Shown: one piece after another, positions 4,176 through 52,443 of the stretch
How positions within the stretch are numbered: the first letter of the stretch is position 1
Layout of the letters: every line of letters begins with the position of its first letter
NCBI GenBank assembly: GCA_944388745.1
Contig: CALXJZ010000001.1
Span: 5,976-69,975, forward strand
Direction: 5' to 3'
Source of the DNA: an uncultured Clostridia bacterium
Lineage (GTDB): Bacteria > Bacillota > Clostridia > TANB77 > CAG-508
Length of the DNA: 64,000 bases
The notes under the pieces: generated by a model
What the model was told of the DNA's origin: nothing
Database searches by the model: none
The model's input: only the letters and a program-made list of their open reading frames with translations
Position numbers and translations under genes: made by a program

Positions 4176-4200
4176 TAAAATTTTCTTCCTTTCTTCGTTA

Positions 4201-4260
4201 TGGTCAGTTTGGGGACAGGTTCGGACTAACCATTTTGGGTTACTTTGGGGACGCCACTTT
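4201..4260 (+). repeat. Family-A dispersed palindromic repeat, copy 1 (TGGTCAGTTTGGGGACAGGTTCGGACTAACCATTTTGGGTTACTTTGGGGACGCCACTTT)
   Basis: Near-identical copies at 22556-22624 (inverted) and 44952-45018. Contains GGTCA..TGACC inverted arms and two T(T)GGGGAC(A/G) cores. Lies 25 nt upstream of the ynbB-like start. Confidence 0.8.
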
Positions 4261-4470
4261 ATTTTCTGTATTTTCGCTTATTATTTTACAATAATTCTCC
4301 TTTTTTTTCAAGGAATTAGGTACTTTAATTTATGCAATTTAAAAATTGAGGAAGTATTTGAATTTATACTTTCTCAATTTTTAATAGACTAATTGTTATT
4401 ACATAAATTACATTATACTATCTTTTAGGTCTGTCCCTTTTGTTTCATTTTGAAACGATTTGGCACGTCC

Positions 4471-19220: not shown

Positions 19221-20354
19221 TTATCTCTCCTCATCTCTATCAGCATGTTTTGTATCTTTTAAAGCTTCTTTAAATATTTTTTCTTCTTTTTCATCTACGT
19301 AATCTTTTACAATATCATATTTATAAGCATTTCTAAATTTTTCAGAATTTTCAGAAGACTTTTGAATTTTTTCGCTATTCTCTTTTTCTATTTTTTTAAC
19401 GTTTCTTTTTTCTTTCCAATCTTTATATCTTTTCCTTATCTCCCACCACTTAAATTTTTTAGCTGGGTGTATATCTTCCGTATTAACATCATTAAATTCT
19501 CTCTCTTCTGAAGGTTGTGTAGGAGCATTCTTTTGCATATTTTCTTGGTAAACTTTAGCTCCAGGTATCTTTTCAATTGCTTTCTCATAGGTTGCAATTC
19601 TCTTATCATACCCTTTTGAAATATTTTTTAATGTTTTAGCTACCCTTATATCACCATCTTTAGTATGAGAAAATCCTTGTTCTTCTATAAGTTTATCTAA
19701 AAAATCTTTATCAATTCCCACATTATTTTTTATGCAAAAATCCATAAACATTTTCTTATTACTAGATTTTTTACTCATAGCTGTCGGAAATTCAACATTA
19801 TTAATTTCATCTATTCTTTTTTTATCTTTTACTGGATCTAATTTTTTTAGTTCATCATCCAATTCTTTAACTCTTTCTGTAGCACGTACCATTCCTTTAA
19901 GATTATTTTCCAATGCAGGATGATTTTTAACTAAATTTATTATTAAATCAACTTGCTCTTTTTCTTTGTTATATTTCTTTAATTTTCTATTATATCTTTT
20001 TTCTATAATAGAATTAATATATGAACTAAATTCTGGATCTTTGCTTAATTCTGCAATATATGAATCTACTTTTTCCTTACTTTTTTTCAATATTTCTTTC
20101 ATTTTGCTAACATTAACTTTTAATTTTTCAATTTCTTGTTCTGCTATTTTTATTGCTGCATCTGCATTTTTTTCAGCAACTTTATCTTTATCTTCTATTG
20201 CTCTTTGCTTATTTCTTTCTGCATCTTCCTTTGTCCTAGTTAATTGTTTCATTTGATTATTAGCTTTTTTTACATGTTCATTTAATTTAGAAATCTTCTC
20301 ATATGATTTCTTATCCTGATTATATTTTTGATTTAATTTATCGTTTAATTCCAT
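19221..20354 (-). CDS. hypothetical K/E-rich coiled-coil protein
   Basis: 377 aa, heptad-rich charged sequence, no catalytic motifs. Its AAGGGGGA SD overlaps the stop of the upstream 49-aa ORF. Confidence 0.5.
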   Translation of the reverse strand: MELNDKLNQKYNQDKKSYEKISKLNEHVKKANNQMKQLTRTKEDAERNKQRAIEDKDKVAEKNADAAIKIAEQEIEKLKVNVSKMKEILKKSKEKVDSYIAELSKDPEFSSYINSIIEKRYNRKLKKYNKEKEQVDLIINLVKNHPALENNLKGMVRATERVKELDDELKKLDPVKDKKRIDEINNVEFPTAMSKKSSNKKMFMDFCIKNNVGIDKDFLDKLIEEQGFSHTKDGDIRVAKTLKNISKGYDKRIATYEKAIEKIPGAKVYQENMQKNAPTQPSEEREFNDVNTEDIHPAKKFKWWEIRKRYKDWKEKRNVKKIEKENSEKIQKSSENSEKFRNAYKYDIVKDYVDEKEEKIFKEALKDTKHADRDEER

Positions 20355-29565: not shown

Positions 29566-30204
29566 TTAAGAAGTAAATAATGATGCTATCGCATTGAAAA
29601 GTGGATTTTCAAATAACAATTCTCTCATCCAACCATTTGTAAATGGTATATACCATAAAGCTATTCCTATTAATATTACAACTATTATTGTTAATATTAA
29701 TGCTATAATATCCTTTTTAGTTATTTCTTTCATTTCTTCTCTTTTAGGTTTATTTTTATATAGTTCCTTACATAATTCAATTATTCCAGGAAATGAACCC
29801 ACTTTATGTTTTTTCATTCGTTCATTAAATTCATACACTTCTTTTTTACTGTTTCGTTGTGATTCATGAATTTTGTTTTCTTTCATATTACTTGTAGCAT
29901 TATTCATATTTCGTTTTATATTCCCATTTAAAATAGTATCATTATTTTGCTTTTGATTATATTTTTTATATAATTCTGCCTGTTCTTGTTTTTCTAATTC
30001 AGCATCATATTGCTCTTTCATAAATTCATCTGTTAAAACACTATATGCCTCATTTATTTCTTTTATTTTTTCTTCGGCATAATTCTTTTTTTGATCTGAA
30101 TATAAGTCTGGATGATATTTTTTTACCAATACTTTATATGCTTTTTCTATTACTTCTTTCGAGGCTTTTTTATTAACCTCTAATATTTCATAGTAATTTT
30201 TCAT
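29566..30204 (-). CDS. J-domain (DnaJ-like) protein with C-terminal transmembrane segment
   Basis: N-terminal DYYEILEVNKKASKEVIEKAYKVLVKKYHPD (HPD motif) and a C-terminal hydrophobic helix. Confidence 0.7.
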   Translation of the reverse strand: MKNYYEILEVNKKASKEVIEKAYKVLVKKYHPDLYSDQKKNYAEEKIKEINEAYSVLTDEFMKEQYDAELEKQEQAELYKKYNQKQNNDTILNGNIKRNMNNATSNMKENKIHESQRNSKKEVYEFNERMKKHKVGSFPGIIELCKELYKNKPKREEMKEITKKDIIALILTIIVVILIGIALWYIPFTNGWMRELLFENPLFNAIASLFTS

Positions 30205-30263
30205 TGCTATTCCCTACTTTTCTTTTTTTCTTTAGTGTTTTCATTTTATCTCAAAAAAAAGAA

Positions 30264-30282
30264 AATAGCAATACATTTTTGC
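30264..30282 (-). terminator. terminator after the cohesin-domain gene
   Basis: Minus-strand TAGCAAAAATGTATTGCTA followed by TTTTCTTTTTTTTG. Confidence 0.5.
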
Positions 30283-30308
30283 TACTTTCTTTAGTCTAAA
30301 CTTGTTTT

Positions 30309-31118
30309 CTATACTGCTCGCCTATATTTAATATAAAATATTATCGCAGATATAATAGAAATAACGACCGCTATTGCAATTATACTTGTAAATCCTGCAT
30401 ATGGTAATGTTTTATTTGCTGTTGTACTTTGATCTACATTTGAACCATTAACTCTTGTATTATTTCTTATTGATGTATTATCACTAGAACCATTTCCACC
30501 TGTTGTACTGTTATTTTCAACTGTATTACTTCCTCCTGCTGTATTATTATTTCCTGATGTATTATTTCCTCCTGTTGTATTATTATTTCCTGATGTATTA
30601 TTTCCTCCTGTTGTGTTATTATCATTATTATTTTCTTCTTCTATGTTAATTGTAGATAATATTCCTGTTCCATCTATAGTTGTATACCCTGATGAACCTT
30701 GTATACTATCTAAAGAAATTGTAGTATTCCCGATTTCAGCATCATCTTTCACTTTAAAATTGATTGTAGCTGTATTAGTCCTTTCTTGTACAACTTCTCC
30801 TGTACTAGTATTAGCTACCATATTCCCCTCATTTTCAAACACTTCCCAACCTGAAGCCGCTGTTACATTAACAAATTCTAATACATTTTGATCATAAATA
30901 ATTTTTGTTTGATATGCACCTATTCCTTGATCTCCACTAGTTACATTAATATTATCAATTATAATATCTACTGAAAATGTGTCTCCTGGATTTAATGTTA
31001 TAGTTGAAGCTTCTAATTGTAACTCAAAGCTTTCTCCTTCTGCAAATGAATTTGTTGAAAATAAAGTTAATATCATGCATAAAATACTTAATATCGCTAA
31101 TAATTTTGTTCGTTTCAT
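30309..31118 (-). CDS. cell-wall-anchored single-cohesin-domain protein (anchoring-scaffoldin-like), N/T/G-rich linker, LPxxG-type sorting signal
   Basis: Signal peptide. About 140 aa with the cohesin-like pattern (NPGDTFSVDIIIDNI...GIGAYQTKIIYDQNVLEFVNV...ATINFKVKDDAEIGNTTISL). Low-complexity NNTTGGNNTSG linker. C-terminal LPYAG, hydrophobic helix, then KYRRAV. Supported by two adjacent dockerin-bearing genes. Confidence 0.55.
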   Translation of the reverse strand: MKRTKLLAILSILCMILTLFSTNSFAEGESFELQLEASTITLNPGDTFSVDIIIDNINVTSGDQGIGAYQTKIIYDQNVLEFVNVTAASGWEVFENEGNMVANTSTGEVVQERTNTATINFKVKDDAEIGNTTISLDSIQGSSGYTTIDGTGILSTINIEEENNNDNNTTGGNNTSGNNNTTGGNNTSGNNNTAGGSNTVENNSTTGGNGSSDNTSIRNNTRVNGSNVDQSTTANKTLPYAGFTSIIAIAVVISIISAIIFYIKYRRAV

Positions 31119-31282
31119 TTGTATTCCCCCATCATTAAAATCTTACAATTATATTTTGACATATTTTTTAATTATTTTCAAGTGTTTTTCTTATTATTTT
31201 ATTATACCAATACTTAAAAATATTAATCTCCTTACAGTTAATTGAATTTGCAGATTTTATTACAGTTATGTTACAATTTTCT

Positions 31283-34200
31283 TTACATATCTTCTACTAT
31301 AATTCTTTTTAGCATCAACATGTCTGTTACATCTACATTTCCATCTTCATTCATATCTGCTAATAATAAAGCTCGTCCTGTTAGTATCCATTCTGTTCTA
31401 CTTCCTGCAACTAAATGTCTCTTTAACATTAGTAAATCTGTTACATCTATCCTTCCATCTTGGTTTACATCTCCAATTTCTATTTTTTCTATGTTTATTA
31501 TTTCTACAATTGCCTGTATCTCATTTCCTGCTAAATCTTTTATTGTTATTGTTTCATTTGTGTTTTCACTATATTTTTTTGTTAGTATTTTTTTATTTTC
31601 TGATAGTATCCATCCTTCTACTTCTTGTATTTCTTCATTTGATGTTATTGTTACTATTACAGGATCTTCTGTTATTTCTTTTGTACTATACTCTATATTT
31701 ATTATTGGTGCTGTATTGTCAAAGTTAAATGCTTCACTTTTTGTTATTGTTTCATTTTCTAAATTATCTTCTGCATATATCCACAAATACCATTTTCCAT
31801 CTCCTGTACTTTTTGTGATTGTTTGTCCATTTTCAAAACTTTCTGTAAAACTTTCTTTTGTAGGCTCTGTCTCACTTTGTGTCCATTGGTATTTTAAACT
31901 TATATCTTTTACACCAACCTCTTCTTGGTTATCTGCTACACCTACTTTTACACTATATCCCTTTTGTGGATTTTCACTTCCATTAGGTTCAAATGTTATC
32001 TCTGGTCCTTCATTATCAATTATATATCTTTGTCCATTTTCTTCTGCGTATTTATGCCCTTCTGTATCTGACTTTGTATATATAATTAAATTATCGCAAT
32101 GTTCAAAAGCCTCACTTTCTATAGTTCCTACGTTTTCTGGAATAACTATGCTTTTTAAATCACTACAATCATAAAACGCTTGACTTCCTATCTTTGTTAC
32201 ACTAAGGGGAAGTATTATGTTTTTTAAACTGATACATCTTGAAAAAGCCATCGTCTCTATAGTAGTTACTCCTTCTGGTATTATTATACTTTCCAAATTA
32301 CTACATTCATCAAAAGTTGCATATTCTAATGTAGTTACACTATCTGGTATAATTACTTTTACCAAATTAGTACATTGATAAAATGCTCTTTCTTTTATAG
32401 AAATAACTCCTTCTGGAATACTATATTCACTTATATCTTCCTTTCCTTCTGGAAATTTTATTAACTCTGTTTTTTCTTTATTAAATAAGATTCCATTTTC
32501 ACTTATGTAATTATTATTATATGAATTCACATTAATACTTTGTAGATTGCTACATCCATAAAATACATCATCACCTATGCTTGTTACTCCTCGTGGAATT
32601 TCTATATTTGTTAAATTACTACATCTTGCAAATGCATTATTTCCTATAACAGTCACTGTATCTGGAATTACTATATTATTCAAATTTATACAATAATTAA
32701 AAGTATATGATTCTATGGTCTTTATATTATTAGATAAAACTACATTTTCTAAATTAATACAGTTAGAAAATGCTTCACTATCAATAACAGTTACACTATT
32801 TGGAATATTTATACTTTTTAAACTAGTACAGTAGGCAAATGCTCTAAAACCTATACTTGTTATACTTTCTGGAATATTTATATTTTTCAAATTAGTACAA
32901 TTATAAAACATACAATTACCTATAGTTGTTATTTTATTGTCTACAACTACATTTTCTATAAAAGTAGTATATTGATTATTGTGCCAGTCACTTTGTTCAT
33001 TATATTCCCAGTTTTTTATTTCTCCTTCTCCTGTTATTGTCAATGTTTTATCTTCTAAAGTCCATTTAGCAATTACACTTTCATCTTGATTTACTGATAT
33101 GTCCCAAGATTTTTCTTCTTCAATTTGATATTCTGTAGAAGTTTCATACGCTATTCCATTTAAAATATATGGTACTTTATGTTCTTCTGCATATTTATGC
33201 CCTATACTATCTGCTTCAACATATAATATTAATTGATTACATCCAGAAAATGCACTTTCCCCTATACTCGTTACACTAGTAGGAATATTTATATTTACTA
33301 AACTAGCACAGTTTGAGAAAGCTTGATTCTCTATACTTATTACTCCTTCTGAAATATTTACACTTCTTAAATTACTACAATTATAAAAAGTAGAATATTT
33401 TATATCTGTTACATTTTCTGGTATATTTATACTTTCTAAACTACTACAACCATAAAAGGCTAGCTCACCTATACTTGATACATTTTGAGGTATTTCTATA
33501 TTTTTTAGAATAGTACATCTTCGAAATGCATTTTCGCCTATACTTTCCATACTGTCTGGTAATCTTATACTTTCCAAAGTGTTACAATTTGCAAATGCAT
33601 AACTTTGTATTCTTTTTATACCTCCTGCAAAGTATATGTTTTGCAAATTATTACAATTATAAAAAGTATAATCTCTTATAGTTGTCACCTTGTCTGGAAT
33701 AGTTATGTTTTCTAAATTAGTACATCCATAAAATGAATAAGATTCTATGTTTTCAACACTGTTAGGTATAATAATACTTTCTAGGCTTGTATTACCATAA
33801 AAAGCATAATAATAAATAGTTGTTACAGTATCTGGTATTTCATATTCTCTTAAATCTTTCTTTCCTCCCGGAAAACAAATAAGTTCATCTTTTTCTTTAT
33901 TAAATAATACTCCATTTTCATCAATAAATTGATTATTATTTTCATTGACATTTATTTTCTCTAGATTAGTACAACCGGCAAAAGCTCCGTAACCTATACT
34001 TATCACATTAATCGGAATATCTATACTTGTTAAATTACTACATCCTGAAAATGCATAGTATGATATACTTGTTAAACTTTCTGGAATTTCTATACTCGTT
34101 AAATTATTACATCCTGAAAATGCATTCTCTCCTACTCTTGTTACTCCTTCCGGAATTTTTATTTTATCTAAACTACTACATTTTGAAAACGCACTATTTT

Positions 34201-34636
34201 TTATATTTATTACTCCAACTGGAATATTTATACTCTCTATACTACTACAATTTGAAAATGCATAACTTCCTATATTGGTTATACCTTCTTCTATACTTAC
34301 ACTTTCTATAATATTAGTATATTGTGTATTATGCCAATCTTCTTCTACATCATATTTCCAATCTTTCATTTCGCCTGTTCCAGATACTGTTAATTTCTTA
34401 TCTTCTAAAGTCCATTTGGCAATCACACTTCCATCTCCATTTGCAGATATATCCCATGTTTCTTCTCCTTTTATTTCATTATTTTTTGATATCACTTCTG
34501 TTGTATCTGTGCTTTCTGTTGGTGTATCTGCCGCAAATGACTCTTTTTGAAATAGAGGTGTTATTGGCATTCCTAATTGAAATATCATTGTTAATATTGC
34601 AATTATTGATATAGTTTTTCCTATTCCCTTTTTCAT
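31283..34636 (-). CDS. secreted BspA-type leucine-rich-repeat protein with C-terminal Ig-like and type-I dockerin module
   Basis: More than 25 repeats of ..SV.SIG..AF.GC..L.SI.IP... (BspA/Treponema-type LRR). C-terminal duplicated Ca-binding dockerin loops DVNQDGRIDVTDLLMLKRHL and DMNEDGNVDVTDMLMLKRII. Confidence 0.8.
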   Translation of the reverse strand: MKKGIGKTISIIAILTMIFQLGMPITPLFQKESFAADTPTESTDTTEVISKNNEIKGEETWDISANGDGSVIAKWTLEDKKLTVSGTGEMKDWKYDVEEDWHNTQYTNIIESVSIEEGITNIGSYAFSNCSSIESINIPVGVINIKNSAFSKCSSLDKIKIPEGVTRVGENAFSGCNNLTSIEIPESLTSISYYAFSGCSNLTSIDIPINVISIGYGAFAGCTNLEKINVNENNNQFIDENGVLFNKEKDELICFPGGKKDLREYEIPDTVTTIYYYAFYGNTSLESIIIPNSVENIESYSFYGCTNLENITIPDKVTTIRDYTFYNCNNLQNIYFAGGIKRIQSYAFANCNTLESIRLPDSMESIGENAFRRCTILKNIEIPQNVSSIGELAFYGCSSLESINIPENVTDIKYSTFYNCSNLRSVNISEGVISIENQAFSNCASLVNINIPTSVTSIGESAFSGCNQLILYVEADSIGHKYAEEHKVPYILNGIAYETSTEYQIEEEKSWDISVNQDESVIAKWTLEDKTLTITGEGEIKNWEYNEQSDWHNNQYTTFIENVVVDNKITTIGNCMFYNCTNLKNINIPESITSIGFRAFAYCTSLKSINIPNSVTVIDSEAFSNCINLENVVLSNNIKTIESYTFNYCINLNNIVIPDTVTVIGNNAFARCSNLTNIEIPRGVTSIGDDVFYGCSNLQSINVNSYNNNYISENGILFNKEKTELIKFPEGKEDISEYSIPEGVISIKERAFYQCTNLVKVIIPDSVTTLEYATFDECSNLESIIIPEGVTTIETMAFSRCISLKNIILPLSVTKIGSQAFYDCSDLKSIVIPENVGTIESEAFEHCDNLIIYTKSDTEGHKYAEENGQRYIIDNEGPEITFEPNGSENPQKGYSVKVGVADNQEEVGVKDISLKYQWTQSETEPTKESFTESFENGQTITKSTGDGKWYLWIYAEDNLENETITKSEAFNFDNTAPIINIEYSTKEITEDPVIVTITSNEEIQEVEGWILSENKKILTKKYSENTNETITIKDLAGNEIQAIVEIINIEKIEIGDVNQDGRIDVTDLLMLKRHLVAGSRTEWILTGRALLLADMNEDGNVDVTDMLMLKRIIVEDM

Positions 34637-34867
34637 GTGTAGTTCCCCTTTCTTTGTTACACTTTCTTTCTCTTAAATCTATTTTACTTTACTTATAATA
34701 TATAAATTTTTTTATACTTTGTAAATATAGCTTTTGCTTGGTAGCGTGAATGTATATTAATTCTACTTACGGCTACTATTCTTTTACTTTTTCTTTTTAA
34801 TTATTAAGTTTTTATTACATTTTTGTTTAATTATTATTTTTTTTTAATCTCTTAACATTATTATCAG

Positions 34868-34894
34868 CAAAAAAATAGACGTACCTCGTACGTC
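34868..34894 (-). terminator. rho-independent terminator after the second dockerin gene
   Basis: Minus-strand GACGTACGAGGTACGTC hairpin followed by TATTTTTTTGC. Confidence 0.65.
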
Positions 34895-34949
34895 CGTAGT
34901 CTGTTTTCTTTTGAAAACATATCATTTATTTTCAATTTTCATATTATTA

Positions 34950-37900
34950 TTACATGTTCTCTACAATTATTCTTTTTAACATCAACATATCTGTTATATC
35001 TACATTTCCGTCTTCATTCATATCTGATGCTAGGAAATAATTTCCTGTTAATATCCAATTCACTTTATTTCCTGCTACTAGATGTCTTTTTAACATTAAG
35101 AAGTCCGTTACATCTTTTTTTCCATCTTGATTGATATCTCCTATTACTATCTCCGGTTCTTCTTCAATATTATTAATCTCAATTATCACTTGCGTTTCAT
35201 TTCCAACTAAATCTTTTATAGTTATAGTCTCTTTTGTATTTGCACTATATTCTTTTGTCAATGTCTTTTTATCACTTGATAATGTCCAACCTTCTACTCC
35301 TTGTATTTCTTCATTTGATGTTATTGTTACTTTTACATTCTTTCTTGTTGGATTTTTTGTACTATAATTAACTGTTAAAATTGGTGATACTTCATCTTTT
35401 TCATTTACCTCTATTGTAAATGTTGAACCTTTTAAAATCCCTTCATTAATTGTAACCATTGCTTTTTTAGCTGTACTAGAATGATGTAAAGTTAATATTA
35501 TTTTAGTTCCATCTTCGTTCAATTTACAATTATATACCTGCAAACCTTCTTCAGAATATGCCTTACTTTCTTTATTTTGGGCTTGCAAAAATATTTTTGG
35601 CAAACTAATTTCTTCTCCTATCTCTCCATTTGAAATCAGTGCTTGATTACTTACATTATATCCACTTATATCTGATATTTCTTCTAGCACACTTACATCT
35701 GAAATACAATTATTCCACGCACCAAATTTCTTCAAATTCTTTAATTCTTTTACTACTTCTATATTATCTATTTTATTTCCTTCTCTTTCCAAACTTCCTT
35801 GTATTAATTTGTCAAAATATACTTCTTCTAAATTTTTCAAACTTGAAAGGTTAGTAATATCCGTCAAATTATTTGTTTGTAAATTTAAATACTTTAAATT
35901 TTCACAATCTAGTATAGGAATCTCTTTTAAATTATTATATTTTAAATCTAATCTTTCTAGTTCTATTAATCCATTTAATGGAGTAATATCTATTATCTTG
36001 TTAAAACTCAAATCTAAATTTGTTAATTTTTTTAAATTATTCAAACTACTAATATCTCTTATATTATTCCAACTTAAATTTAAAATCTCCAATTTTTCTA
36101 AATCCTTCAAACACTCAATATCAGTTATATTATTCCTTTTTAAATTTAATGTTGTTAAACTAGTCAAGTTTTCCAATCCTGTAATATTATTTATTTCTTT
36201 ATCTGATAAATCTAATTCTGTTATATATTCTATATCTTCTTCTAATATATTAATTTCCAAACTATCATCATTATTTTCATAAATAAATATTCCTATTTTA
36301 TCAAGCAAACTATTATAAAAGTTCTTATCTTTTAATGATATTACTATTTCATCTTTTTCATCATTAAAAACTGGATATCCATCATTTTTATTTTCAGAAT
36401 CCAAAACAAATACATCATCACTATTATTTAATAAATTGACAAAATCTTCTGTTTTCATAAAATTACTGTCTTTTGATATTATATTATTTAGAACATTCCC
36501 TGTATATGTTGATTTTAAATAATAACAATTGCTTATCGTTCCAGTGTTAGTATTTATAATATTTACAGTTTTAGCAGTATTAAGTTGACTAATAGTATAA
36601 CAATTTGTAATACTTCCATCATTTTGATATATTAATCCCATTACTTTTGGTGAAATATTTAATCCATCACGTACCTCACTTGAAATTTCTCCTTTTGAAT
36701 AACAATTATATATCTCACCTGAATAATTTAATACCGCTATACCAGCTGAAACAAGATTATATGCTCCTGTCCTACTAACACCATTTGATTTTCCAATAGA
36801 AGTAGTTACACTACCATAATTAGCACATCTATTTACAGTACCACATTGGTTGCTACTTATAATTCCTCCTGCCGAAACAACTCCCTTAATATTTCCAAAA
36901 TTGATACAATCTATAAGATTTCCCCCATTACTTTGGACAATCCCTGCAATTTCTGAAGCAGTATATTCATAATTTTCGGGATCTTCATTTTTATGATGAC
37001 TAATAATTTCTCCATAATTATTACATCTTTTTACAAAAACTTTTTCTTTTTTTCCTCCTGTTGTTGCAACTATTCCTGCAACTCCATCAGCACCTTCTAC
37101 ATTTCCATAATTATGACAATTTACTATGATTGCCATAGAATTTTCTGATACAATTGTGCTTTGCCCACTTATTCCTCCTACATCAGAATTGCCTCTATTT
37201 ATTGTAGATTCTATTTTTCCATAATTTAAACAATCTTTTATTCCACTAGTATTATCTCCACATATTCCTCCTATAAAACGTTTACCTCTTACGTTTCCAT
37301 TATTAATACAATCTATAACTATATTATCATATTGTGTAGTTTTATTACATCCTACGATTCCTCCAACATACTCTCTATTTTCTATCCTAGCTTCATTTAT
37401 ACTCTCTTTTACAATTCCGTTATTTAATCCTACTATTCCTCCCACAAAAGTTAACTCGTCTGTATCTATTATTACATCAGAATTATTATTACACTTAAAA
37501 ATAGTTCCAGAATTTTTACCTACTATTCCTCCTACATAATTATACGATATATAAGCGTTTAAACTAACTGAACCGTTACTAACACTATCTCTCATTTCTC
37601 CACTATTACTTCCTACAATACCACCAATATTTGTCTCAGTCCCATGTATATCAAGCATAGTCTCTACATTTTCTATAATTCCTCTATTTGTTCCTACTAA
37701 TCCTCCTACACCCCAATCGTTAGCTTCATTTCCAATAACTGTTCCAGAAGATATATTTAAATTTTTTATAGTTCCATTGTTATCTGAAAAGAAACCTTTA
37801 CCCAAATTATTGCTATCACTTATATATAAATTACTTATTATATGGTTTCTTCCATCAAATGTACCTTCAAAAGCATAAGAATCATTTCCAATTGGTGTCC

Positions 37901-38153
37901 ATTGATTATTTTCATTACCTTCTAAATCAATATCAGCAGTTAATACAACTGTCTTTTCTTCATAGGTATTTCCATTATTAACATCATTAGCAAATGCAAT
38001 TAATTCTTCCTTGGTTGAAATTTCTAAATCCGCTGTTATTTCATCCGCTGCCAACACTTTTATATTTAACTCTGATATCATTGGTAATATTAATTGAAAT
38101 ATCATTGTTAATATTACAATTATTGATATAGTTTTTCCTATCCCTTTTTTCAT
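34950..38153 (-). CDS. secreted GLUG/beta-helix-repeat plus internalin-type LRR protein with C-terminal Ig-like and type-I dockerin module
   Basis: Signal peptide nearly identical to that of the 31283..34636 gene. Gly-rich parallel beta-helix/GLUG-like repeats (GGIVG.N.G.I..C.N). Listeria-type 22-aa LRRs (LNLSWNNIRDISSLNNLKKLTNLDLSFNKI). Dockerin DINQDGKKDVTDFLMLKRHL and DMNEDGNVDITDMLMLKRII. Confidence 0.75.
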   Translation of the reverse strand: MKKGIGKTISIIVILTMIFQLILPMISELNIKVLAADEITADLEISTKEELIAFANDVNNGNTYEEKTVVLTADIDLEGNENNQWTPIGNDSYAFEGTFDGRNHIISNLYISDSNNLGKGFFSDNNGTIKNLNISSGTVIGNEANDWGVGGLVGTNRGIIENVETMLDIHGTETNIGGIVGSNSGEMRDSVSNGSVSLNAYISYNYVGGIVGKNSGTIFKCNNNSDVIIDTDELTFVGGIVGLNNGIVKESINEARIENREYVGGIVGCNKTTQYDNIVIDCINNGNVRGKRFIGGICGDNTSGIKDCLNYGKIESTINRGNSDVGGISGQSTIVSENSMAIIVNCHNYGNVEGADGVAGIVATTGGKKEKVFVKRCNNYGEIISHHKNEDPENYEYTASEIAGIVQSNGGNLIDCINFGNIKGVVSAGGIISSNQCGTVNRCANYGSVTTSIGKSNGVSRTGAYNLVSAGIAVLNYSGEIYNCYSKGEISSEVRDGLNISPKVMGLIYQNDGSITNCYTISQLNTAKTVNIINTNTGTISNCYYLKSTYTGNVLNNIISKDSNFMKTEDFVNLLNNSDDVFVLDSENKNDGYPVFNDEKDEIVISLKDKNFYNSLLDKIGIFIYENNDDSLEINILEEDIEYITELDLSDKEINNITGLENLTSLTTLNLKRNNITDIECLKDLEKLEILNLSWNNIRDISSLNNLKKLTNLDLSFNKIIDITPLNGLIELERLDLKYNNLKEIPILDCENLKYLNLQTNNLTDITNLSSLKNLEEVYFDKLIQGSLEREGNKIDNIEVVKELKNLKKFGAWNNCISDVSVLEEISDISGYNVSNQALISNGEIGEEISLPKIFLQAQNKESKAYSEEGLQVYNCKLNEDGTKIILTLHHSSTAKKAMVTINEGILKGSTFTIEVNEKDEVSPILTVNYSTKNPTRKNVKVTITSNEEIQGVEGWTLSSDKKTLTKEYSANTKETITIKDLVGNETQVIIEINNIEEEPEIVIGDINQDGKKDVTDFLMLKRHLVAGNKVNWILTGNYFLASDMNEDGNVDITDMLMLKRIIVENM

Positions 38154-38399
38154 GTATAGCTTTCCTCCCTTTATACTACTTTCCTATAAAATATTTTTTT
38201 CTTACTTATACTATATAAAGTTTCTCACACTTTGTAAATATGCTTTTTTTCTAGCATTATGAATATATGATATTATAACTTACGGATACTATCTTTTTGC
38301 TTTCTTTTTAATTTTTTTAAATTTTTATTACAATTTTATTTCACTACAATTATTTATACTATTATTTTAAATAAAACTCCGTATTTTAACCTATTCATC

Positions 38400-38480: not shown

Positions 38481-40871
38481 ATGGGCTACAATTTTACAGA
38501 AATCGAAAAAAAATGGCAAAACTATTGGGACGAGCATAAAACTTTTTATACAGATGTATGGGATTTTTCTAAACCTAAATTTTACGCATTAGACATGTTT
38601 CCATACCCATCAGGACAAGGACTACATGTTGGTCACCCAGAAGGATATACTGCAACAGATATAATGTCTAGAATAAGAAGAATGCAAGGATATAATGTTT
38701 TACATCCAATGGGATGGGATGCTTTCGGTTTACCTGCAGAACAATATGCAATAAAAACAGGAAATCATCCGGCAGAATTTACAAAGGCTAATATTGCAAC
38801 TTTTAAAAGACAATTAAAAATGTTAGGATTTTCTTTTGATTGGGATAAAGAAATTTCTACATGTGACCCAGATTTTTATAAATGGACTCAATGGATTTTT
38901 AAACAATTATATAATGACGGTTTAGCAAAACTTGTTGAGATGCCTGTAAATTGGTGTGAAGGTTTAGGTTGTGTACTTTCAAATGATGAAGTTATTAATG
39001 GTAGAAGTGAAAGAGGAGACTTCCCTGTTGTTCGTAAAAATATGAAGCAATGGGTTTTAGATATTCCTCAATATGCTGAAATATTGTTAGACGGATTAGA
39101 TGATATTGATTGGCCTGAATCAACTAAAGAAATTCAAAGAAATTGGATTGGAAAATCTGAAGGTGCAGAAGTTATATTCAAGATTGCCGATTTTGATAAC
39201 ACAGAATTTACTGTATTTACCACAAGACCGGATACTTTATTTGGTGCCACATATTGCGTTATTGCTCCTGAACTTGATTTAGTAGATAAAATAACAACTA
39301 ATGAGCAAAAAGAAGCAGTAGAAAAATATAAACAAGAAGCTGCTAGTAAATCAGACTTAGAAAGAACTGAATTAAATAAAGAAAAAACGGGTGTATTTAC
39401 TGGAAGTTATGCTATTAATCCTGTAAATGGTAGAAAAATTCCTATCTGGATTTCTGATTATGTACTTTCTACATATGGTACAGGTGCAATTATGGCCGTT
39501 CCTGCTCACGACCAAAGAGATTATGAATTTGCAAGTAAATTTGGTATAGAAATAATCCCTGTATTAGAAGGTGGAGATATTTCAAAAGAAGCATTTACTG
39601 GAGATGGATTACATATCAATTCTGATTTTCTTGATGGATTAGATAAAGAAACATCTATCAAAAAAATGATTGAATATCTTGAATCTCATAAGATTGGAAA
39701 GAAAAAGATTAATTATAAACTACGTGAATGGATATTTGCAAGACAACGCTATTGGGGAGAACCAATTCCAATTGTATATTTAGATGATGAAATGAGAGCA
39801 TTAGCAGATGATGATTTACCTCTAGTTTTACCAGAACTTGAAGATTATGCTCCTTCAAAAACAGGTGCATCACCACTAGATAAAGCAACAGATTGGGTAA
39901 ATACTACATTTGAAGGGAAACCTGCTAAAAGAGAAACAAGTACAATGCCTGGTTCTGCTGGTTCAAGTTGGTATTTCTTAAGATATATTGACCCTAAAAA
40001 CAATGACGAATTCGCAAATAAAAAATTACTTGAATACTGGATGCCTGTTGATTTATATGTAGGCGGTCCTGAACATGCCGTTGGGCATTTACTATATTCA
40101 AGATTTTGGAATAATTATTTATATAATAAAGGACTTGTTCCAGTAAAAGAACCATTTGCAAAACTTCGCCATCAAGGTATGATTTTAGGTACTAATGGTG
40201 AAAAGATGAGTAAATCAAAAGGAAATGTTATCAATCCTGATGATATGGTTAAACAATATGGTGCAGATAGTTTAAGATTATATGAAATGTTTATGGGACC
40301 AATAGATGCCGTTAAACCTTGGGATGTCAACGGTATTGAAGGTACAAAGAAATTCTTAGACCGTGTTTGGAGATTATATGTAGAATCTGGAAAAATTCAA
40401 AATACTTCAAACAAAAATCTAGAAAAAGATTATCATTTTACAGTAAAAAAAGTTACAAATGATTATGAAACAATGAATTTTAACACAGCTATTTCTCAAA
40501 TGATGATTTTCATAAACAATGTTAATAAGGAAGAAATTTTTCCATTAGAATATGCTGAAGGATTTTTAAAATTACTAAATCCAATTGCACCACATATTAC
40601 TGAAGAATTGTGGAACATCTTAGGTCATGACAATACCATTAGCTATGAAAAATGGCCAACTTATGATGAAGCTAAAACTATTGACGATGAAATTACTTTA
40701 CCAATTCAGTTTAATGGTAAATTGAAAGCTACTATTCAAATTCCATTAGATGAAGATGCAAGTGTAATCAAGCAAAAAGTTCATGAAGCAATTGATTCTA
40801 AATTAGATGGAAAAACTATTGTAAAAGAAATCTATGTAAAAAATAAAATTTACAATATAGTTGTGAAATAA
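38481..40871 (+). CDS. leuS: leucine--tRNA ligase
   Basis: HIGH-class motif ([16 protein letters not shown]), KMSKS ([10 protein letters not shown]), editing-domain sequence; 796 aa. Confidence 0.95.
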
Positions 40872-40973
40872 CTTGTAACAAAAATGTAACTAATACTTAA
40901 TACTTTTGACATTCTCTTTCTTCGACTTTTGTTGTATAATTTAATGGAGAATATATTAAGGAGTTTTGTCGAT

Positions 40974-42089
40974 ATGAGTATAGAAACAGATTTAAGAAAA
41001 GATGGAATAGAAGTAACAAAAAAACTAGATACGCTGCAAATCAATTCTATTGCAAATAATATCGCAATGAAATTATGCGAAACTTTTCCTGAATATAACT
41101 TAAACCAAAATGAACTTTTCATACGTTTATCACGTTTAGATATGTATAGAGCTAAAATGCCTGAAGGAATGGCAGAAGCAAATTATTTCTATAAAAATAC
41201 ATCTATATATTTTAATGAACATATTCCAGATGATGACCTAGAAGAATTTGCAATTCATGAGTGTATACACTATTTACAAGAAGTAAAAGATAAAAAAAAC
41301 TATTTAATTAGAATGGGGCTTTGTGATTATACTGAATTTAAAATATATGGATTAGGACTAAATGAAGCAGCTGTTCAATTAATGGCATCCAAAGTAAATG
41401 GCATTCCAAAAGAATATGTTAAATATTTTGGAATTAGTTTTGAAACAATTAGTCCTTCATACTATCCTTTAGAATGTTGTTTAGTAAATCAACTAGCTTA
41501 TTTAGTTGGTGAAGATGTTTTATTTGAAAGTACATTAAATAGTAATGATAACTTTAAGCAGGCTTTTGCAGATGCTACTTCACCTAAAGCTTTTATGGCT
41601 ATTCAAAATGCAATTGATGAAATTTTATATCATGAAGAAGATATTATTAAATTAAATAATAAAATTTCAAATATAGATGACAGAAATAAAAAAGTTGATG
41701 GTATGCTAAAGAAAATTGATGAACTAAAAAGTGAAATTTCTCTTATTTTCTTTAGAACTCAAAACTTAATTATTTCAAGTTATTTTGATAACAGCTTTAA
41801 TAAAATTACTAATCTTGAAGAAGTTGAAAATTATAGGAGAAAACTATATACATTTAAAGATTATTTAGGCTCTAGCGAAGGTTATACGTTTTTTAATGAT
41901 TACTATGTTTCAAAAATGGAACAACTTGAAGAGAAATATAATGCTCTTGAAAATGGTGAAACATTGCAAGTTGAAACTGCTATTAAAGTTATTTCTAAAA
42001 AAGAAAATATGTTTAGACGTTTTATCGCTACTATTAAAAAATTGTTATTTGGAGGAATTGGAGCTCAAGAAAATAATTCAAATAATTAA
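40974..42089 (+). CDS. hypothetical HExxH-motif protein (putative zinc-dependent peptidase fold) with C-terminal coiled coil
   Basis: FAIHECIHYLQE (HExxH) followed by GLNEAAVQ (candidate third ligand Glu). Start taken at MSIETDL after an AAGGAG SD; the ORF track begins at 40929. Confidence 0.45.
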   Translation: MSIETDLRKDGIEVTKKLDTLQINSIANNIAMKLCETFPEYNLNQNELFIRLSRLDMYRAKMPEGMAEANYFYKNTSIYFNEHIPDDDLEEFAIHECIHYLQEVKDKKNYLIRMGLCDYTEFKIYGLGLNEAAVQLMASKVNGIPKEYVKYFGISFETISPSYYPLECCLVNQLAYLVGEDVLFESTLNSNDNFKQAFADATSPKAFMAIQNAIDEILYHEEDIIKLNNKISNIDDRNKKVDGMLKKIDELKSEISLIFFRTQNLIISSYFDNSFNKITNLEEVENYRRKLYTFKDYLGSSEGYTFFNDYYVSKMEQLEEKYNALENGETLQVETAIKVISKKENMFRRFIATIKKLLFGGIGAQENNSNN

Positions 42090-42205: not shown

Positions 42206-42961
42206 ATGATATTTTGGATTATTTGGATTTGTGGGCTTATATTAACAGTTATGATATTTAAAATTTCTAAACGGTATACAGATAATTTTGGTAGAATTAA
42301 GCTACAAAAAGAAAATACCACAAAAGTACAACTACTTTCAATATTAAGTATGGTTACACTTGATGCATTAACCCCCACTGGAATGGTATATTTGATATTG
42401 ATAAGACAATATGGTGTTCGTTCTTTTGGACTTATAGCATTCTTTTTTATTATTTTTATAACTCTTGTAATATTTCTTATTTTTTCTTGTAAACTTGACT
42501 TTTTTCATAAAACAGTATCAAGAGTTATTTTGAGAATTGCATTTGTCCTTTCAATAATAGGATGGGGAGTTATATTTTATATTTATGACTTAAATATAGA
42601 AGTAGTTACAGAAACTTTTACAGAAACAGAAGAAAGAGAACTTTTATCTTTTAATAATGTACCTATTAAAGATGTCTCTGTCCATATTGGTCGATTTTAT
42701 GGTGAAATAACTTCTTCAGATGAAATTCCGTACTGGTATTTAGATGACAATACCAATGAAGGTTTGTATGATTCTGCTCCACCATCAGATTCAAGAATAA
42801 AATTAATTGAAGATGATGAAACATCTTATCTTGAAATTGTCACCTCTACGACAATAACAACTGAATATAATAATTATAACGGAACTCAGAGAACCTTAGA
42901 TGAGGAAACATCTGTGGAATATAAGTTTTATTTACCACAATCACAATTTTCAAATAATTAA
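42206..42961 (+). CDS. hypothetical integral membrane protein
   Basis: Four predicted TM helices in the N-terminal half, a hydrophilic C-terminal domain, GGAGG SD. Confidence 0.5.
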   Translation: MIFWIIWICGLILTVMIFKISKRYTDNFGRIKLQKENTTKVQLLSILSMVTLDALTPTGMVYLILIRQYGVRSFGLIAFFFIIFITLVIFLIFSCKLDFFHKTVSRVILRIAFVLSIIGWGVIFYIYDLNIEVVTETFTETEERELLSFNNVPIKDVSVHIGRFYGEITSSDEIPYWYLDDNTNEGLYDSAPPSDSRIKLIEDDETSYLEIVTSTTITTEYNNYNGTQRTLDEETSVEYKFYLPQSQFSNN

Positions 42962-48186: not shown

Positions 48187-49035
48187 TTATTTTTCAATCA
48201 TAATAAAAGCTGCACATAAACCATATCCCTGCTTCTCAACTCTAAATGAATGTATCAAATCTGAGTGACACACACTACATATTCCACTATCTACAATATT
48301 TTCTTCCTTTAAGCCAACTTTTTGCAAAATTATTTTATTTATCAAAACTGTATCTATATTCCATTTCTCATTTGGAATTTTCTCCTGTATTATATCACAT
48401 AATTGGTCATTTTTTAAGTCTTTATATTCATTTTCAAACATTTCTTTAACATCTCTATCTACTTCAAAATGACATTTCCTAATACTTGGACAAATACAAC
48501 ATATTATATCTTCTGGATTACAACCAAATTCATTTTTCATTTTTTCAACTGTTTTAACTGAAATCCTTTGAATTGTTCCTTTCCAACCAGAATGTGTATT
48601 TGCTATTACTTCCTTTACTGGGTCATAAAATAACAGTAATATACAATCTGCATTTGTAGTCTCCAATATAATATCTTTCTTGTTTGTAATTAGTCCATCT
48701 GTTTTAGAATAATCGCTTGTTTCAAATTCTGGTCTATCCTTATACCTCTTATTTTTTACAACTTTTATTTCGTCTGTATGGTCTTGTGCAGGCTTAATAA
48801 TCTTTGTATAATCATCATTTACTTCTTCAAAAAATTTCTTATATGTATTAATATTTTTCTCATATCTTTCTTTTGGTAACTCTTTTTTATCAGGAGTCAA
48901 AGTTCTAAAATCGTTGTTAATTCCTAAGGTATATGCATGTTTTATTTTATCTTTATATTCCAATAATCTCCTAAACTGCAAATATTCAATTCCATTCTTT
49001 TTAACATGAATTACATTTTCATTTGATAAATCCAC
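48187..49035 (-). CDS. pgeF: peptidoglycan editing factor PgeF / YfiH (DUF152, purine nucleoside phosphorylase LACC1 family)
   Basis: ILLLFYDP...HSGWKGT...CICPSI..CHFEV conserved motifs. Apparent GTG start with an AAGGAGG SD. Confidence 0.8.
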   Translation of the reverse strand: MDLSNENVIHVKKNGIEYLQFRRLLEYKDKIKHAYTLGINNDFRTLTPDKKELPKERYEKNINTYKKFFEEVNDDYTKIIKPAQDHTDEIKVVKNKRYKDRPEFETSDYSKTDGLITNKKDIILETTNADCILLLFYDPVKEVIANTHSGWKGTIQRISVKTVEKMKNEFGCNPEDIICCICPSIRKCHFEVDRDVKEMFENEYKDLKNDQLCDIIQEKIPNEKWNIDTVLINKIILQKVGLKEENIVDSGICSVCHSDLIHSFRVEKQGYGLCAAFIMIEK

Positions 49036-52000
49036 TGTTTTCCTCCTTTATACATGTCTCATTGAGAAACGTCCCCATTGAGACATTTTGTGGAACATAG
49101 TTATAATTATTATCCTTATTTTGCGGATTAAAACCACAAATTGCTTTATATTCACAATACTCACAAGGAGTTTTACCCTTTTTATTATATGGTTTTATTT
49201 CTATATTTCCATTAAATATCTCTTTTGCAATCTGTTTTATAGTTATATTTATATAATCTTGTAAAACTTTAAATTCTTCTTTACTCACACCATTTGTCCA
49301 CTTTTTATTTACTGAACCTGACTGCGTAATTGCTGCTGGTACTAGCTTTGAGCTTCCAGATGATAATGTATTATCATTCATCTTTATTATTTTTACATCT
49401 GCGACTATAAGCCCTTTCATCTTAAAGTTTTTTTGTATCATATTTTCAATTTCTTCTTCAGATATCCTTTTATCAGCTTTAATCATTTGCTCTAATAATG
49501 AAAAATAAAATATTCCCGCAGGCATAATATCTTCTTCTTTGCAAATTGCATCCATATATGTCAATAGCTGAATTTGCAAACCTGCATACACTTCATTTAA
49601 ATCTATATTCTTGCTTGAAGATTTATAATCTATAATTCTTAAATATTTCCCATCTTCTTCGTCTGCTGTATCAATTCTGTCAATTTTTCCTGTAATTTCA
49701 ACTCTTTTTCCATCTTCTAACTCTAAAATTATAGGTTTATACTTTCCATTTTTGCCGAATTCAACTTCTGTTCCTTCTATACTAAAATCACTATGTATTA
49801 TTGTTTGAATTATATATTTCAAGGCTTTTGATACAATTCTTTTTAATCTTCTTACTAATACTTTATATTTTACTGTTGCTGTAAACATGTAGTTTTTAGA
49901 ATCTTCTAAGTTTTCTTCTATTATCTCTGACACTAATTCAAATATTTTATCTTCTTCTAATTCTGCTAGATTAATATTTTCTTTTCTAGTTGTCTCAAAA
50001 AATTCATCAATTGTTTCATGCATAAATGAACCTGTATCAAAGGTATGTATTTTTAGTTCTTCCTTTTCTTTTAGTTTTAAGCCATATTGCAAATAATATG
50101 AAAATGGACAACTTCTATATTTTTCTAATCTTGATACACTTGTATTTAATGTATTTCCATATAATTTTTCAATATTTTCTTTCTGAAGTTTTTCTGGTTG
50201 ATTTGTATAAAACAATGCCTGTAAGTCCTTATTTAAAACTTCCTTCCAGTTGATTTTGTGTTTATAGTATTTATATATTAAATACCATATATCTTCAATT
50301 TTTTCCTTGTTTTTTAATCTTGCAATATTTTGTAATAGCTCTTCATATGTAACTTTTGCATTTGCAATTTCATATTTTTTCTCTATTACATCACTTTCTT
50401 CTTTCAAATTTGGATATATTCTTTTTAACTTATTTATGTATGTAGAAGGTCTTAATGATTTTCCTTCTTTATCTGTTGAACAATATGATATATATATGCT
50501 ATTTTCTGCTGTTGTAAATGCTTTATATATGTTAAAGTTTTCTTCATATAGATTTTCAACAGTTCCTTTTGCAATTTCTAGCCCTTCATTTTTTAGATAT
50601 TCTCTATCTTCATCATTGAAAAAGCCTTCATCTTTGTTCACACTTGGAAATTGTCCATCATTTACACCAATTAAAAATACTGTTTTTACTCTATGACTCC
50701 TTGAACGGTCAACGTCTGCAAATGTTACTTGGTCTTGTGTTCCTGGTATTTTCCCAAGCCCACTATTTTGCATACCAACTTTTAATATTTTGCTATATTG
50801 GTCTAATGTCATTTTGTCATCTGCAAATGTTAACACAATTTCATCCATAATTTCTAGTATTAGTTTATAACTTTGGATATATTCTTCAGCTAATTCAATA
50901 AGTTCTTTTTCTTTTAACTCTTTTACCTTTTGCTCAATTTTCTCTTCAATATTTTGCTCTTGTAAAAATTCATATAAACATCTACATATATTTTGTGCTG
51001 TTTTTTCTTCGTTAATTTGTTGTTTCAATTTTATCAGTGGTTCTACTATTTGCTTTCTTAATTCCTCTAATCTTTCAATTTCTTGAACTTTATCCACATT
51101 TTGTTTATCATATGTGAATTCTTTTTTCCATTTATTTTGTTTTATTCCCCATTTGGTACAATAATTTTCTAATTTAAATATTTCGTCTTTTTCAATATCA
51201 AAAAATCCAGATTTTAAATAGAAAAATACACTTTCTGTTGTGAAATTTTTATTTAATATCTCAATAATTGATAATATGTATTGTGTAATTATATTTTGAT
51301 TTAAATCTCTTTTTTCATCAATAAATACTGGTATATTATATTTTAAAAATATACTTCTTACCAATGATGAATATTCTTCTATATTTTTGGTTATTATTGC
51401 AATATCTTTATATCTTAACCCTTCATCTCTTACTAATCTTGTGATTTGTCTTGCTACTTGCTCTATTTCACTATATGGATTTTGGGCTAAAAACATATTG
51501 ATATTTTGGTTTTCTTTTTGATATTTTTGTATTTTTATATTCCCTATATTATCACTTAAATGTTGTAATTCTTCTGTTTTAAATCTATATTGTTTTTTCA
51601 AACAGACTGGTTCTTCTAACTTAAATCCATTTTCATCTATTAAATTGATAATCTTTTTTAAAGTTTGTTTATTAGAATAAAATATATCTGTATCAGGATT
51701 TGTATTCATTTCTAAGTTATCTATACACATTGTGATGTTTACTTGTTTTGCCTGTTCAATTAATTTTTTTATAACTTCATATTCTTGTCCGAGTAAATCC
51801 TGCAAATTCATCTAAATATATTATGCTATCTTTAATAAAATTTGTTTGTTCAACATTTTGACTAAGTATTGTTAATAAATCTGTATCTTCTATGTATTTT
51901 CCTTGTATTTGCTCTTCAAATTTTTCATAGATTAATATCATATCTGATAATTTTGCTTGCAAATAATTGTCTTCTGTTTTTTCTTGTTCTTCTTTTAAAT

Positions 52001-52396
52001 TTTCAATTGTAATTCCATGTTTTTTTAATTCTTTTATTGTATTCATACTTAATTCAATATTTTCATCTGATTTTCCTAGAAATTTTAAATCTTTTTTGTA
52101 CTTATTTAATATAGAATATATAAGTATTGCTTTTCCACATTTTGAAATTTGAGTTTTATTTGCTCCACCTATCTCATTTATAACTCTATATGCTAACCTA
52201 CTTAATGTTACAACTTCTGCATTTAATACTGCGTCTCGATTTACTGCTTCCATTAGCTTCTTTTCAGCAGTAAATGAAAATTGCTCTGGTGTTATCATAT
52301 ATATTTTTTTCTCTTTATCTATTAAATTTGCTATCTCTTTAAAGCAAAACTCACTTTTTCCTGTTCCTGGTTTGCCATATATAATTCTTAAACTCA
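49019..52396 (-). CDS. addB: ATP-dependent helicase/deoxyribonuclease subunit B (AddB/RexB), interrupted by a single +1 frameshift near 51791
   Basis: N-terminal ORF (51777..52412) has P-loop IIYGKPGTGKSE. The 930-aa ORF 49019..51811 carries the C-terminal RecB-nuclease/Fe-S Cys cluster (CEYCEYKAICGF). Combined length about 1140 aa. Removing one C from actCggaca restores a single frame. Probable TTG start at about 52396 after GGAGGTG. Confidence 0.8.
49053..49087 (-). repeat. Family-B REP-like hairpin repeat (ATGTCTCA | TTGAGAAACGTCCCCAT | TGAGACAT)
   Basis: Perfect 8-bp inverted arms around a conserved GGGGACGTTTCT-containing loop. Lies in the last codons of addB and just upstream of the pgeF RBS. 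Confidence 0.8.
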
Positions 52397-52410
52397 AATT
52401 TTTCACCTCC

Positions 52411-52443
52411 ATGTCTCATTGGGGACGTTTCTAAGTGAGACAT
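52411..52443 (+). repeat. Family-B REP-like hairpin repeat (ATGTCTCA | TTGGGGACGTTTCTAAG | TGAGACAT)
   Basis: Same element in the opposite orientation, immediately 5' of the addB start. Followed by a second small hairpin TGTCCCATTTTGGACA. Confidence 0.8.

Follow-up and report, generated by a model that had tools for sequence, protein, structure and literature searches.

Introduction

What is a cohesin for, when the DNA around it encodes dockerins and no enzyme of polysaccharide degradation? The question is raised by a locus at positions 30309-38153 of a 64-kb stretch of DNA from an uncultured Clostridia bacterium (contig CALXJZ010000001.1 of assembly GCA_944388745.1; the whole stretch is called the window below, and positions refer to it), which has a G+C content of about 27% and a steady strand bias. 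The locus is filled by three open reading frames (ORFs), all on the minus strand: cargo gene 1 (34950..38153, 1067 aa) and cargo gene 2 (31283..34636, 1117 aa) each encode a large protein ending in a dockerin, and the anchor gene (30309..31118, 269 aa) encodes a small protein with a cohesin. This is the only cohesin of the 64 kb, and it is adjoined by the only two dockerin ORFs. An earlier note on this DNA, made from its letters and ORFs, had described three consecutive, co-oriented genes and put the cohesin gene first; the co-orientation is correct, but with all three ORFs on the minus strand the cohesin gene is the last in transcription order.

Cohesin and dockerin proteins outside cellulosomes are widespread and mostly non-catalytic, according to Peer et al. 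(2009) in the form in which that study is cited in PMC13487519. A cellulosome, by the definition used here, comprises a scaffoldin with at least two cohesins and a dockerin-fused glycoside hydrolase (PMC13487519). That combination occurs neither in the window nor in any of the 10 anchor loci considered below, and the 64 kb hold no glycoside hydrolase with a dockerin, no other polysaccharide-degrading enzyme, no second cohesin and no third dockerin, in agreement with the earlier statement that no cellulosomal enzymes are nearby. With a single cohesin and no glycoside hydrolase, the locus is therefore not a cellulosome. It is probably a module for surface display in a Gram-positive Clostridia cell, a minimal cohesin-dockerin system without enzymes, and the evidence for this reading lies in the architecture of the three proteins and in the recurrence of their gene linkage in related loci.

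The anchor protein

The anchor protein consists, in order, of a signal peptide, a single cohesin, a stalk rich in Asn, Thr and Gly (N/T/G-rich), the motif LPYAG, a transmembrane (TM) helix and the tail KYRRAV. The cohesin module (residues 28-162; 30633..31037, minus strand) was recognized by Pfam, by an AlphaFold2 (AF2) model, by Foldseek and by a profile search of the PDB. Pfam Cohesin (PF00963) matches residues 38-150 with 33.9 bits (cut-off 24.1), and relatives with 40.1 and 34.0 bits. In the AF2 model, residues 28-162 form a beta-sandwich (predicted local distance difference test, pLDDT, >90), residues 167-243 a disordered N/T/G stalk and residues 242-268 a C-terminal helix. The best 32 Foldseek matches of this model in the PDB are cohesins without exception, the closest being the non-cellulosomal cohesins of C. 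perfringens NagJ and GH33 (2jh2 and 2vo8; target TM-scores, TMt, of 0.83 and 0.86, respectively; E of about 1e-9 to 1e-10), and model and matches together display the nine-stranded jelly-roll of the cohesin fold. A profile of 25 family members, run against the PDB, found first the type-I cohesin of C. cellulolyticum CipC (E 1.7e-4), other leading matches being the cohesins of A. cellulolyticus ScaC, C. perfringens NagJ and C. thermocellum CipA. Since the model has neither an inserted helix nor flaps, the cohesin is type-I-like; the complex of the type III ScaE cohesin (4IU3) was not among the top 50 Foldseek matches.

The cell-wall sorting signal (residues 238-269; 30312..30407, minus strand) has the three expected parts: LPYAG, the hydrophobic helix FTSIIAIAVVISIISAIIFYI and the basic tail KYRRAV. 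In an alignment of 25 family sequences, P239 and G242 are invariant and L238 nearly so, giving the family motif LP[YK][AT]G, which reads LPKTG in some homologues, the most distant ones included. The adjoining stalk is hypervariable in composition and length; conservation of the motif beside such a stalk therefore indicates that the likeness of the tail to a sorting signal is not due to chance. Among the proteins encoded in the window and in the related loci L007-L018, the anchors alone combine LPx[TA]G, a TM helix and a basic tail. One cohesin, a C-terminal sortase signal, and neither dockerin nor catalytic module make the protein fit the type of anchoring scaffoldin represented by ScaE and Sca2. 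Its family comprises 86 unnamed proteins, nearly all of 240-281 aa and almost confined to metagenomes; the same 269-aa sequence recurs without change on 13 contigs of metagenomes in two ENA projects, and a search of the literature for the habitat of the samples gave nothing relevant. Three elements that the earlier note had proposed for this protein are thus borne out: the cohesin-like module, for which significant matches were obtained by profile and by fold alike, the N/T/G-rich stalk and the sortase-type tail.

A different account of the same protein would make it a C-terminally membrane-anchored beta-sandwich of the pilin or adhesin kind, the dockerins serving as mere calcium-binding stabilizers and the gene linkage having no functional meaning. 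Lower among the fold matches stand the N-domain of a C. perfringens pilus protein (rank 33) and the CLIPPER adhesin domain (rank 49), and the Pfam model for Gram-positive anchors is silent; set against the unbroken run of cohesins above those ranks, the Pfam Cohesin scores above the gathering threshold in the window anchor and its relatives, an LPxxG motif conserved throughout the family and a gene linkage that recurs from locus to locus, these points leave the account very improbable.

The cargo proteins

Both cargo proteins begin with an almost identical signal peptide (MKKGIGKTISII...) and are 64% identical over their last 165 aa; the passengers in between are unrelated. Dockerin_1 (PF00404, cut-off 22.9) scores 49.8 bits in the 1117-aa and 43.5 bits in the 1067-aa protein. 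The dockerin of cargo 1 (residues 1005-1063; 34965..35141, minus strand) carries the calcium loops DINQDGKKDVTD and DMNEDGNVDITD, and that of cargo 2 (residues 1055-1113; 31298..31474, minus strand) the loops DVNQDGRIDVTD and DMNEDGNVDVTD, each loop being followed by xLMLKR. Asp or Asn is kept at positions 1, 3, 5, 9 and 12 of all four loops, which lie in a duplicated 22-residue segment, and the best sequence matches in the PDB are type-I dockerins of C. thermocellum (4fl4_A, E 1.2e-8; CelS; XynY). The two halves of each dockerin are near-identical, both reading D[VI]TDxLMLKR. Internal symmetry of this kind has been associated with dual binding modes (PMC7456326); the near-identical halves therefore make it likely that these dockerins can bind a cohesin in two orientations.

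Each dockerin is preceded by an X module. That of cargo 2 (31499..31702, minus strand) is an Ig-like beta-sandwich at residues 19-86 of an AF2 model of the last 165 residues (X module plus dockerin, X-Doc), in which it is joined to a three-helix dockerin (pLDDT 86); the homologous module of cargo 1 lies at about 35160-35386 (minus strand). Foldseek matches of the X-Doc model in the PDB were weak, of Ig, PKD and MHC-like type only (best E 0.02), and the X module is for this reason described simply as an Ig-like sandwich. No LPXTG/TM tail or other wall-binding Pfam domain was found in either cargo protein.

The passenger of cargo 2 consists of two blocks of BspA-type leucine-rich repeats (LRR; Pfam LRR_5), the product of an internal duplication, so that the protein as a whole comprises signal peptide, LRR_5 blocks, X module and C-terminal type-I dockerin. 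LRR_5 reaches 607.9 bits across 6 stretches. The NCBIfam model for HupY/LrrG gives 215 bits against an equivalog cut-off of 1250, and the protein is therefore not that specific adhesin. In cargo 1 the signal peptide is followed by a GLUG-type repeat region (about residues 40-600) and an internalin-like LRR region (about 630-840; LRR_4, 64.6 bits, and LRR_8), then by the X module and the type-I dockerin. Pfam Glug (PF07581) was undetected in this protein at E<=0.1; it does match the counterpart in locus L008 (34.6 bits) and a fragment in locus L015 (64.3 bits), and the N-terminal part of the 1067-aa protein shares 35% identity with the L008 counterpart, so that its GLUG assignment is supported indirectly, through homologues. 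NCBIfam internalin models score 80.4 bits (InlH/InlC2, cut-off 1050) and 68.3 bits (InlA, cut-off 1600), and only the LRR region is alike; with scores this far below the cut-offs, the protein does not qualify as a Listeria-type internalin.

The earlier note had described type-I dockerins at the ends of two large proteins that have no wall anchor of their own, and a BspA-type passenger in one of them, all of which is confirmed; of the GLUG-plus-internalin-LRR passenger proposed for the other, the LRR part was matched directly, but the GLUG part was detected only in homologues.

Linkage of anchor and cargo genes in related loci

Ten distinct anchor loci, the window's own included, were compared; in the other nine the anchor is 26-78% identical to that of the window. 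In 8 of the 10, down to 26% anchor identity, the anchor gene is immediately preceded by dockerin genes of the same orientation: two in the window, at least four in L008, one in L009, at least three in L011, two in L013, two in L015 (one of them in fragments) and one each in L017 and L018. From this repeated co-oriented arrangement, the proposed functional link between anchor and cargo gains independent support. The linked cargo amounts to about 15 genes, of which about 10 are of LRR_5 type, three or four of GLUG type and one a papain-like Peptidase_C1-dockerin protein found in L013, the most distant locus, in which cohesin-like module and dockerins have diverged together. The earlier proposal that LRR adhesins hang on one anchored scaffoldin is supported by the linkage in 8 of the 10 loci, but the cargo is not exclusively LRR, as the peptidase of L013 demonstrates.

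What speaks most strongly for the adjacent cohesin as receptor of these dockerins is the recurrence of the linkage, which is an argument from gene order and not a binding test. Conceivably, the adjacent cohesin is not the partner at all: the dockerins would dock to another cohesin, encoded elsewhere in the same genome or carried by a different organism, and the 269-aa protein would have some other ligand. Sequence does not reveal the specificity of cohesins for dockerins, and in two loci the anchor stands alone. Such independence is nevertheless improbable, given that the adjacency holds from 100% to 26% anchor identity while the dockerin sequences shift in parallel, and that no locus yielded more than one cohesin.

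The frame around the array is conserved as tilS-ftsH-[variable]-anchor-dnaJ-rpsU-M16-M16-spo0E-like-SNF2. In the other anchor loci in which the upstream flank was recovered, ftsH bounds the array, with tilS before it where the locus reaches that far; in the window, the divergently transcribed leuS (38481-40871, plus strand) stands in place of ftsH, and a rearrangement at the array edge is thus indicated. The same comparison permits a bolder reading, which we regard as doubtful: that the slot flanked by ftsH and the anchor gene is a dedicated hot spot for the gain, duplication, decay and loss of adhesin cassettes, a single invariant wall-linked cohesin presenting LRR adhesins that are specific to the strain and change rapidly. 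A cassette may then consist of a conserved promoter and signal-peptide head and an X-Doc tail around a variable passenger. If true, this would amount to plug-in adhesive or antigenic variation in a Clostridia lineage that apparently has no cellulosome.

Two kinds of observation concern the variable slot itself. A PDDEXK_9/AAA-ATPase_like gene lies within the cargo array in two loci, and an IS200-type Y1 transposase gene upstream of tilS in three others (these genes are at L009 8096-9769, L011 751-2424, L013 1-642, L016 5966-6718 and L017 4009-4779); it is possible that they drive the variability of the slot. In L015 (5378-8946) a cargo gene of GLUG type is split into three ORFs, and in L011 (6052-7362) an LRR_5 fragment of 436 aa runs into the gene that follows; these cases suggest decay of cargo genes, or else errors in the assembly of repeats.

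The cargo counts refer to these loci: a 145-aa X-Doc query for homologues returned 18 short fragments only, too few for a cargo census, and in a scan of Joint Genome Institute (JGI) metagenomes with an X-Doc profile the dockerins recovered were all distant (28-47% identity) and came from other lineages, none from the present one. Outside the anchor family, loci L077, L079, L081, L088 and L089 each encode, at about 3700-7860, a dockerin protein of about 810 aa followed within about 10 nt by a protein of about 555 aa with an N-terminal cohesin-like module. These latter proteins have no LPXTG tail and belong to a lineage unrelated to that of the window; L088, at least, is on a contig labelled human gut metagenome. 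The order dockerin gene, then cohesin gene therefore recurs outside the anchor family.

Comparison with known anchoring scaffoldins

The closest precedents come from Ruminococcus. ScaE of R. flavefaciens is a single-cohesin LPXTG protein that binds the dockerins of CttA and ScaB, and one gene cluster encodes both CttA and ScaE (PMC2930009, PMC7456326); the adhesion bond formed by the ScaE/CttA equivalent of R. champanellensis, with its dual binding modes, has been studied experimentally (PMC7456326). The present locus resembles this system in several respects: its anchor is small, secreted and equipped with one cohesin and a C-terminal LPXTG-type sortase signal; it would likewise hold on the cell surface a non-catalytic adhesion protein that bears a dockerin; and this dockerin follows an Ig-like X module and has symmetric halves that suggest dual binding modes. 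In gene order, too, the two are alike, cttA lying directly upstream of scaE. Unlike the present anchor, however, ScaE carries a whole cellulosome through ScaB, whereas no polysaccharide-degrading enzyme is linked to the locus described here; CttA binds cellulose through modules resembling carbohydrate-binding modules, whereas the cargo here is of LRR type; and the cohesin and dockerins of ScaE/CttA are of type III, whereas the cohesin here is type-I-like and the dockerins are closest to type I of C. thermocellum.

Sca2 of R. bromii has one cohesin and a predicted sortase signal and binds in vitro the dockerins of a 2xLRR protein (CBL14720.1), a peptidase and amylases; a general surface-anchoring role was proposed for it by its authors (PMC4611034). 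Its LRR and peptidase clients parallel the LRR and C1-peptidase cargo of the anchor family. It differs in size (534 aa, compared with 240-281 aa here) and in its other clients: it binds amylase dockerins (Amy4, Amy9), whose genes have not been reported as an array beside sca2, whereas the cargo here is directly linked and includes no carbohydrate-active enzymes (CAZymes). Given the type-I-like modules, the present system is therefore an analogue, and not an orthologue, of ScaE/CttA or Sca2.

By the example of Sca2, the anchor could be a general-purpose docking point of the ScaE/Sca2 type, with enzymes (peptidases and possibly glycoside hydrolases) and further scaffoldins encoded elsewhere in the genome and the LRR proteins forming only a linked subset of its clients; the locus would then not be dedicated to adhesin display. 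The Peptidase_C1-dockerin protein at the cargo site of L013 and L014, the anchors without linked cargo in L007 and L016, and the indifference with which Sca2 binds amylase, peptidase and LRR-protein dockerins (PMC4611034) all speak for this; against it, no dockerin-bearing CAZyme was found in the window, in the 10 anchor loci or among the fragments returned by the X-Doc query, and LRR_5 accounts for about 10 of the approximately 15 linked cargo genes. We consider such a wider role rather unlikely as a description of the locus, and it overlaps with surface display instead of contradicting it.

Two further systems resemble the locus in part. The non-cellulosomal modules of the C. perfringens toxin-glycosidase complexes likewise put cohesin and dockerin to use outside cellulose degradation, but they sit inside large secreted glycoside hydrolases and join enzymes to one another, whereas here a dedicated cohesin with a wall-sorting tail would display LRR proteins. 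In the dockerin proteins of R. flavefaciens FD-1, 28 LRR modules were counted, and some are encoded in tandem (PMC2930009). The architecture of signal peptide, LRR and dockerin is shared, but in FD-1 the LRR proteins are a minority within a huge cellulosomal repertoire, with undefined cohesin partners and anchor linkage, whereas here they are the dominant linked cargo.

Proposed mechanism

If the locus is a surface-display module, as we think probable, it would work as follows. All three proteins would be exported by Sec. A sortase would cut the anchor at LPYA|G and join it to peptidoglycan, and the N/T/G-rich stalk of about 70 residues would act as a spacer that carries the type-I-like cohesin through and beyond the wall. 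The anchorless cargo proteins would be caught at the surface when the Ca2+-loaded type-I dockerin, following the X module, binds the cohesin non-covalently, possibly in two orientations. The passengers so displayed would be scaffolds for protein-protein interaction, likely serving adhesion to host, particle or other cells, and a single anchor would serve a shifting assortment of cargo genes, gathered immediately on its upstream side.

Several observations weigh against this reading. In the sorting motif of the window anchor Ala replaces Thr at position 4, and Pfam Gram_pos_anchor has no match in the protein; the NCBIfam model EF0750_LPXTG gives it 14.3 bits with a cut-off of 47. Substrates of the form LPXAG are known for sortases of staphylococci. 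Motif scans for a sortase gene found none in the 64-kb window or in loci L007-L018. With the curated anchor models silent and no sortase gene in the window or these loci, sortase processing is therefore a step that we infer. Conservation of the cohesin is uniform from strand to strand (0.74-0.93), so that no distinct dockerin-binding face is discernible from it. In L007 and L016 no dockerin gene adjoins the anchor gene; linkage of the cargo is thus not obligatory, and the genome may encode further partners at other sites. Calcium-dependent binding between cohesin and dockerins is presumed from gene linkage, and the adhesive role and ligands of the LRR cargo are suggested by analogy.

Transcription signals and duplicated regions

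The regions around the genes contain several candidate signals, all on the minus strand. A promoter-like pair of elements upstream of cargo 1 (TTTACA, 17 nt, TATAGT; 38210..38238), inside a duplicated upstream region, has a homologous counterpart upstream of cargo 2 (TTTACA, 17 nt, TATATT; 34697..34725), and the consensus common to both is TTTACA-17-TATAKT. Intrinsic-terminator-like hairpins with a T-run follow cargo 1 (34877..34895) and the anchor gene (30258..30292); the terminator scan found none in the gap between cargo 2 and the anchor gene.

The common ends of the two cargo genes, examined for recent gene conversion, are only 71-84% identical in DNA, which indicates an old duplication instead. 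The DNA repeats recorded are D1, D2 and D6 inside cargo 2, D3 and D4 at the X modules, and D5 and D7 in the upstream regions. An Rfam scan of the locus and of the duplicated leaders gave no match. The 15-mer ATAGTAKCCGTAAGT occurs at 34765-34779 and 38278-38292 (minus strand), the equivalent spot upstream of each cargo gene within the duplicated promoter region; with up to 2 mismatches it has 4 matches in the window, compared with 0.23 expected, and a check of its conservation across species found it in contigs of the same species only. It could be an operator or a mere remnant of the duplication.

Genomic surroundings

The neighbors in the window are mostly housekeeping genes: leuS, a gene for a DnaJ-domain protein, rpsU, two M16 peptidase genes, a SNF2 helicase gene, trmFO/gid, gdpP, topA, addB, rnc and others. 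The DnaJ-domain protein (212 aa; 29566-30204, minus strand) has the domain at its N-terminus and a membrane helix at its C-terminus. Its gene directly follows the anchor gene in 9 of the 10 loci and in L018 lies three genes further downstream, past argG and argH; in the window a terminator separates the two.

Two other proteins encoded in the window are of a different kind, one with G5, SH3 and glucosaminidase domains, the other a surface protein with a thioester domain (TED), eight SpaA-type repeats and DUF11. The latter (2335 aa; 4471-11478, minus strand) ends in a hydrophobic helix and KKFVI, has no recognizable LPXTG and reads ...ISISTGATRTYFMLGG...; it may use a sorting signal unlike that of the cohesin anchor. 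AddB, a helicase-nuclease subunit, is split within its ADDB_N domain into the overlapping ORFs 49019-51811 and 51777-52412 (minus strand), the result of a frameshift, of gene decay to a pseudogene or of an error in the sequence. No Pfam match was obtained for the ORFs at 40929-42089 (plus strand, 386 aa), 42206-42961 (plus strand, 251 aa), 19221-20354 (minus strand, 377 aa) and 61498-63003 (minus strand, 501 aa).

Significance

The idea of a cohesin-dockerin system repurposed outside the cellulosome is not a new one, ScaE/CttA and Sca2 being experimentally studied precedents (PMC2930009, PMC4611034), and because the same design is documented for both, the locus reveals no new principle. New here are the lineage, an anchor of small size, the predominance of LRR proteins among the cargo and an array that is syntenic yet variable. 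Gut Firmicutes commonly encode dockerin-tagged LRR proteins, whose role and cohesin partners are largely undefined; a three-gene locus with one cohesin, two dockerins and no enzymes, in which linkage suggests the partner, is a compact and easy test case. It could show whether cohesin-dockerin pairs generally mount adhesins on the walls of non-cellulolytic Clostridia.

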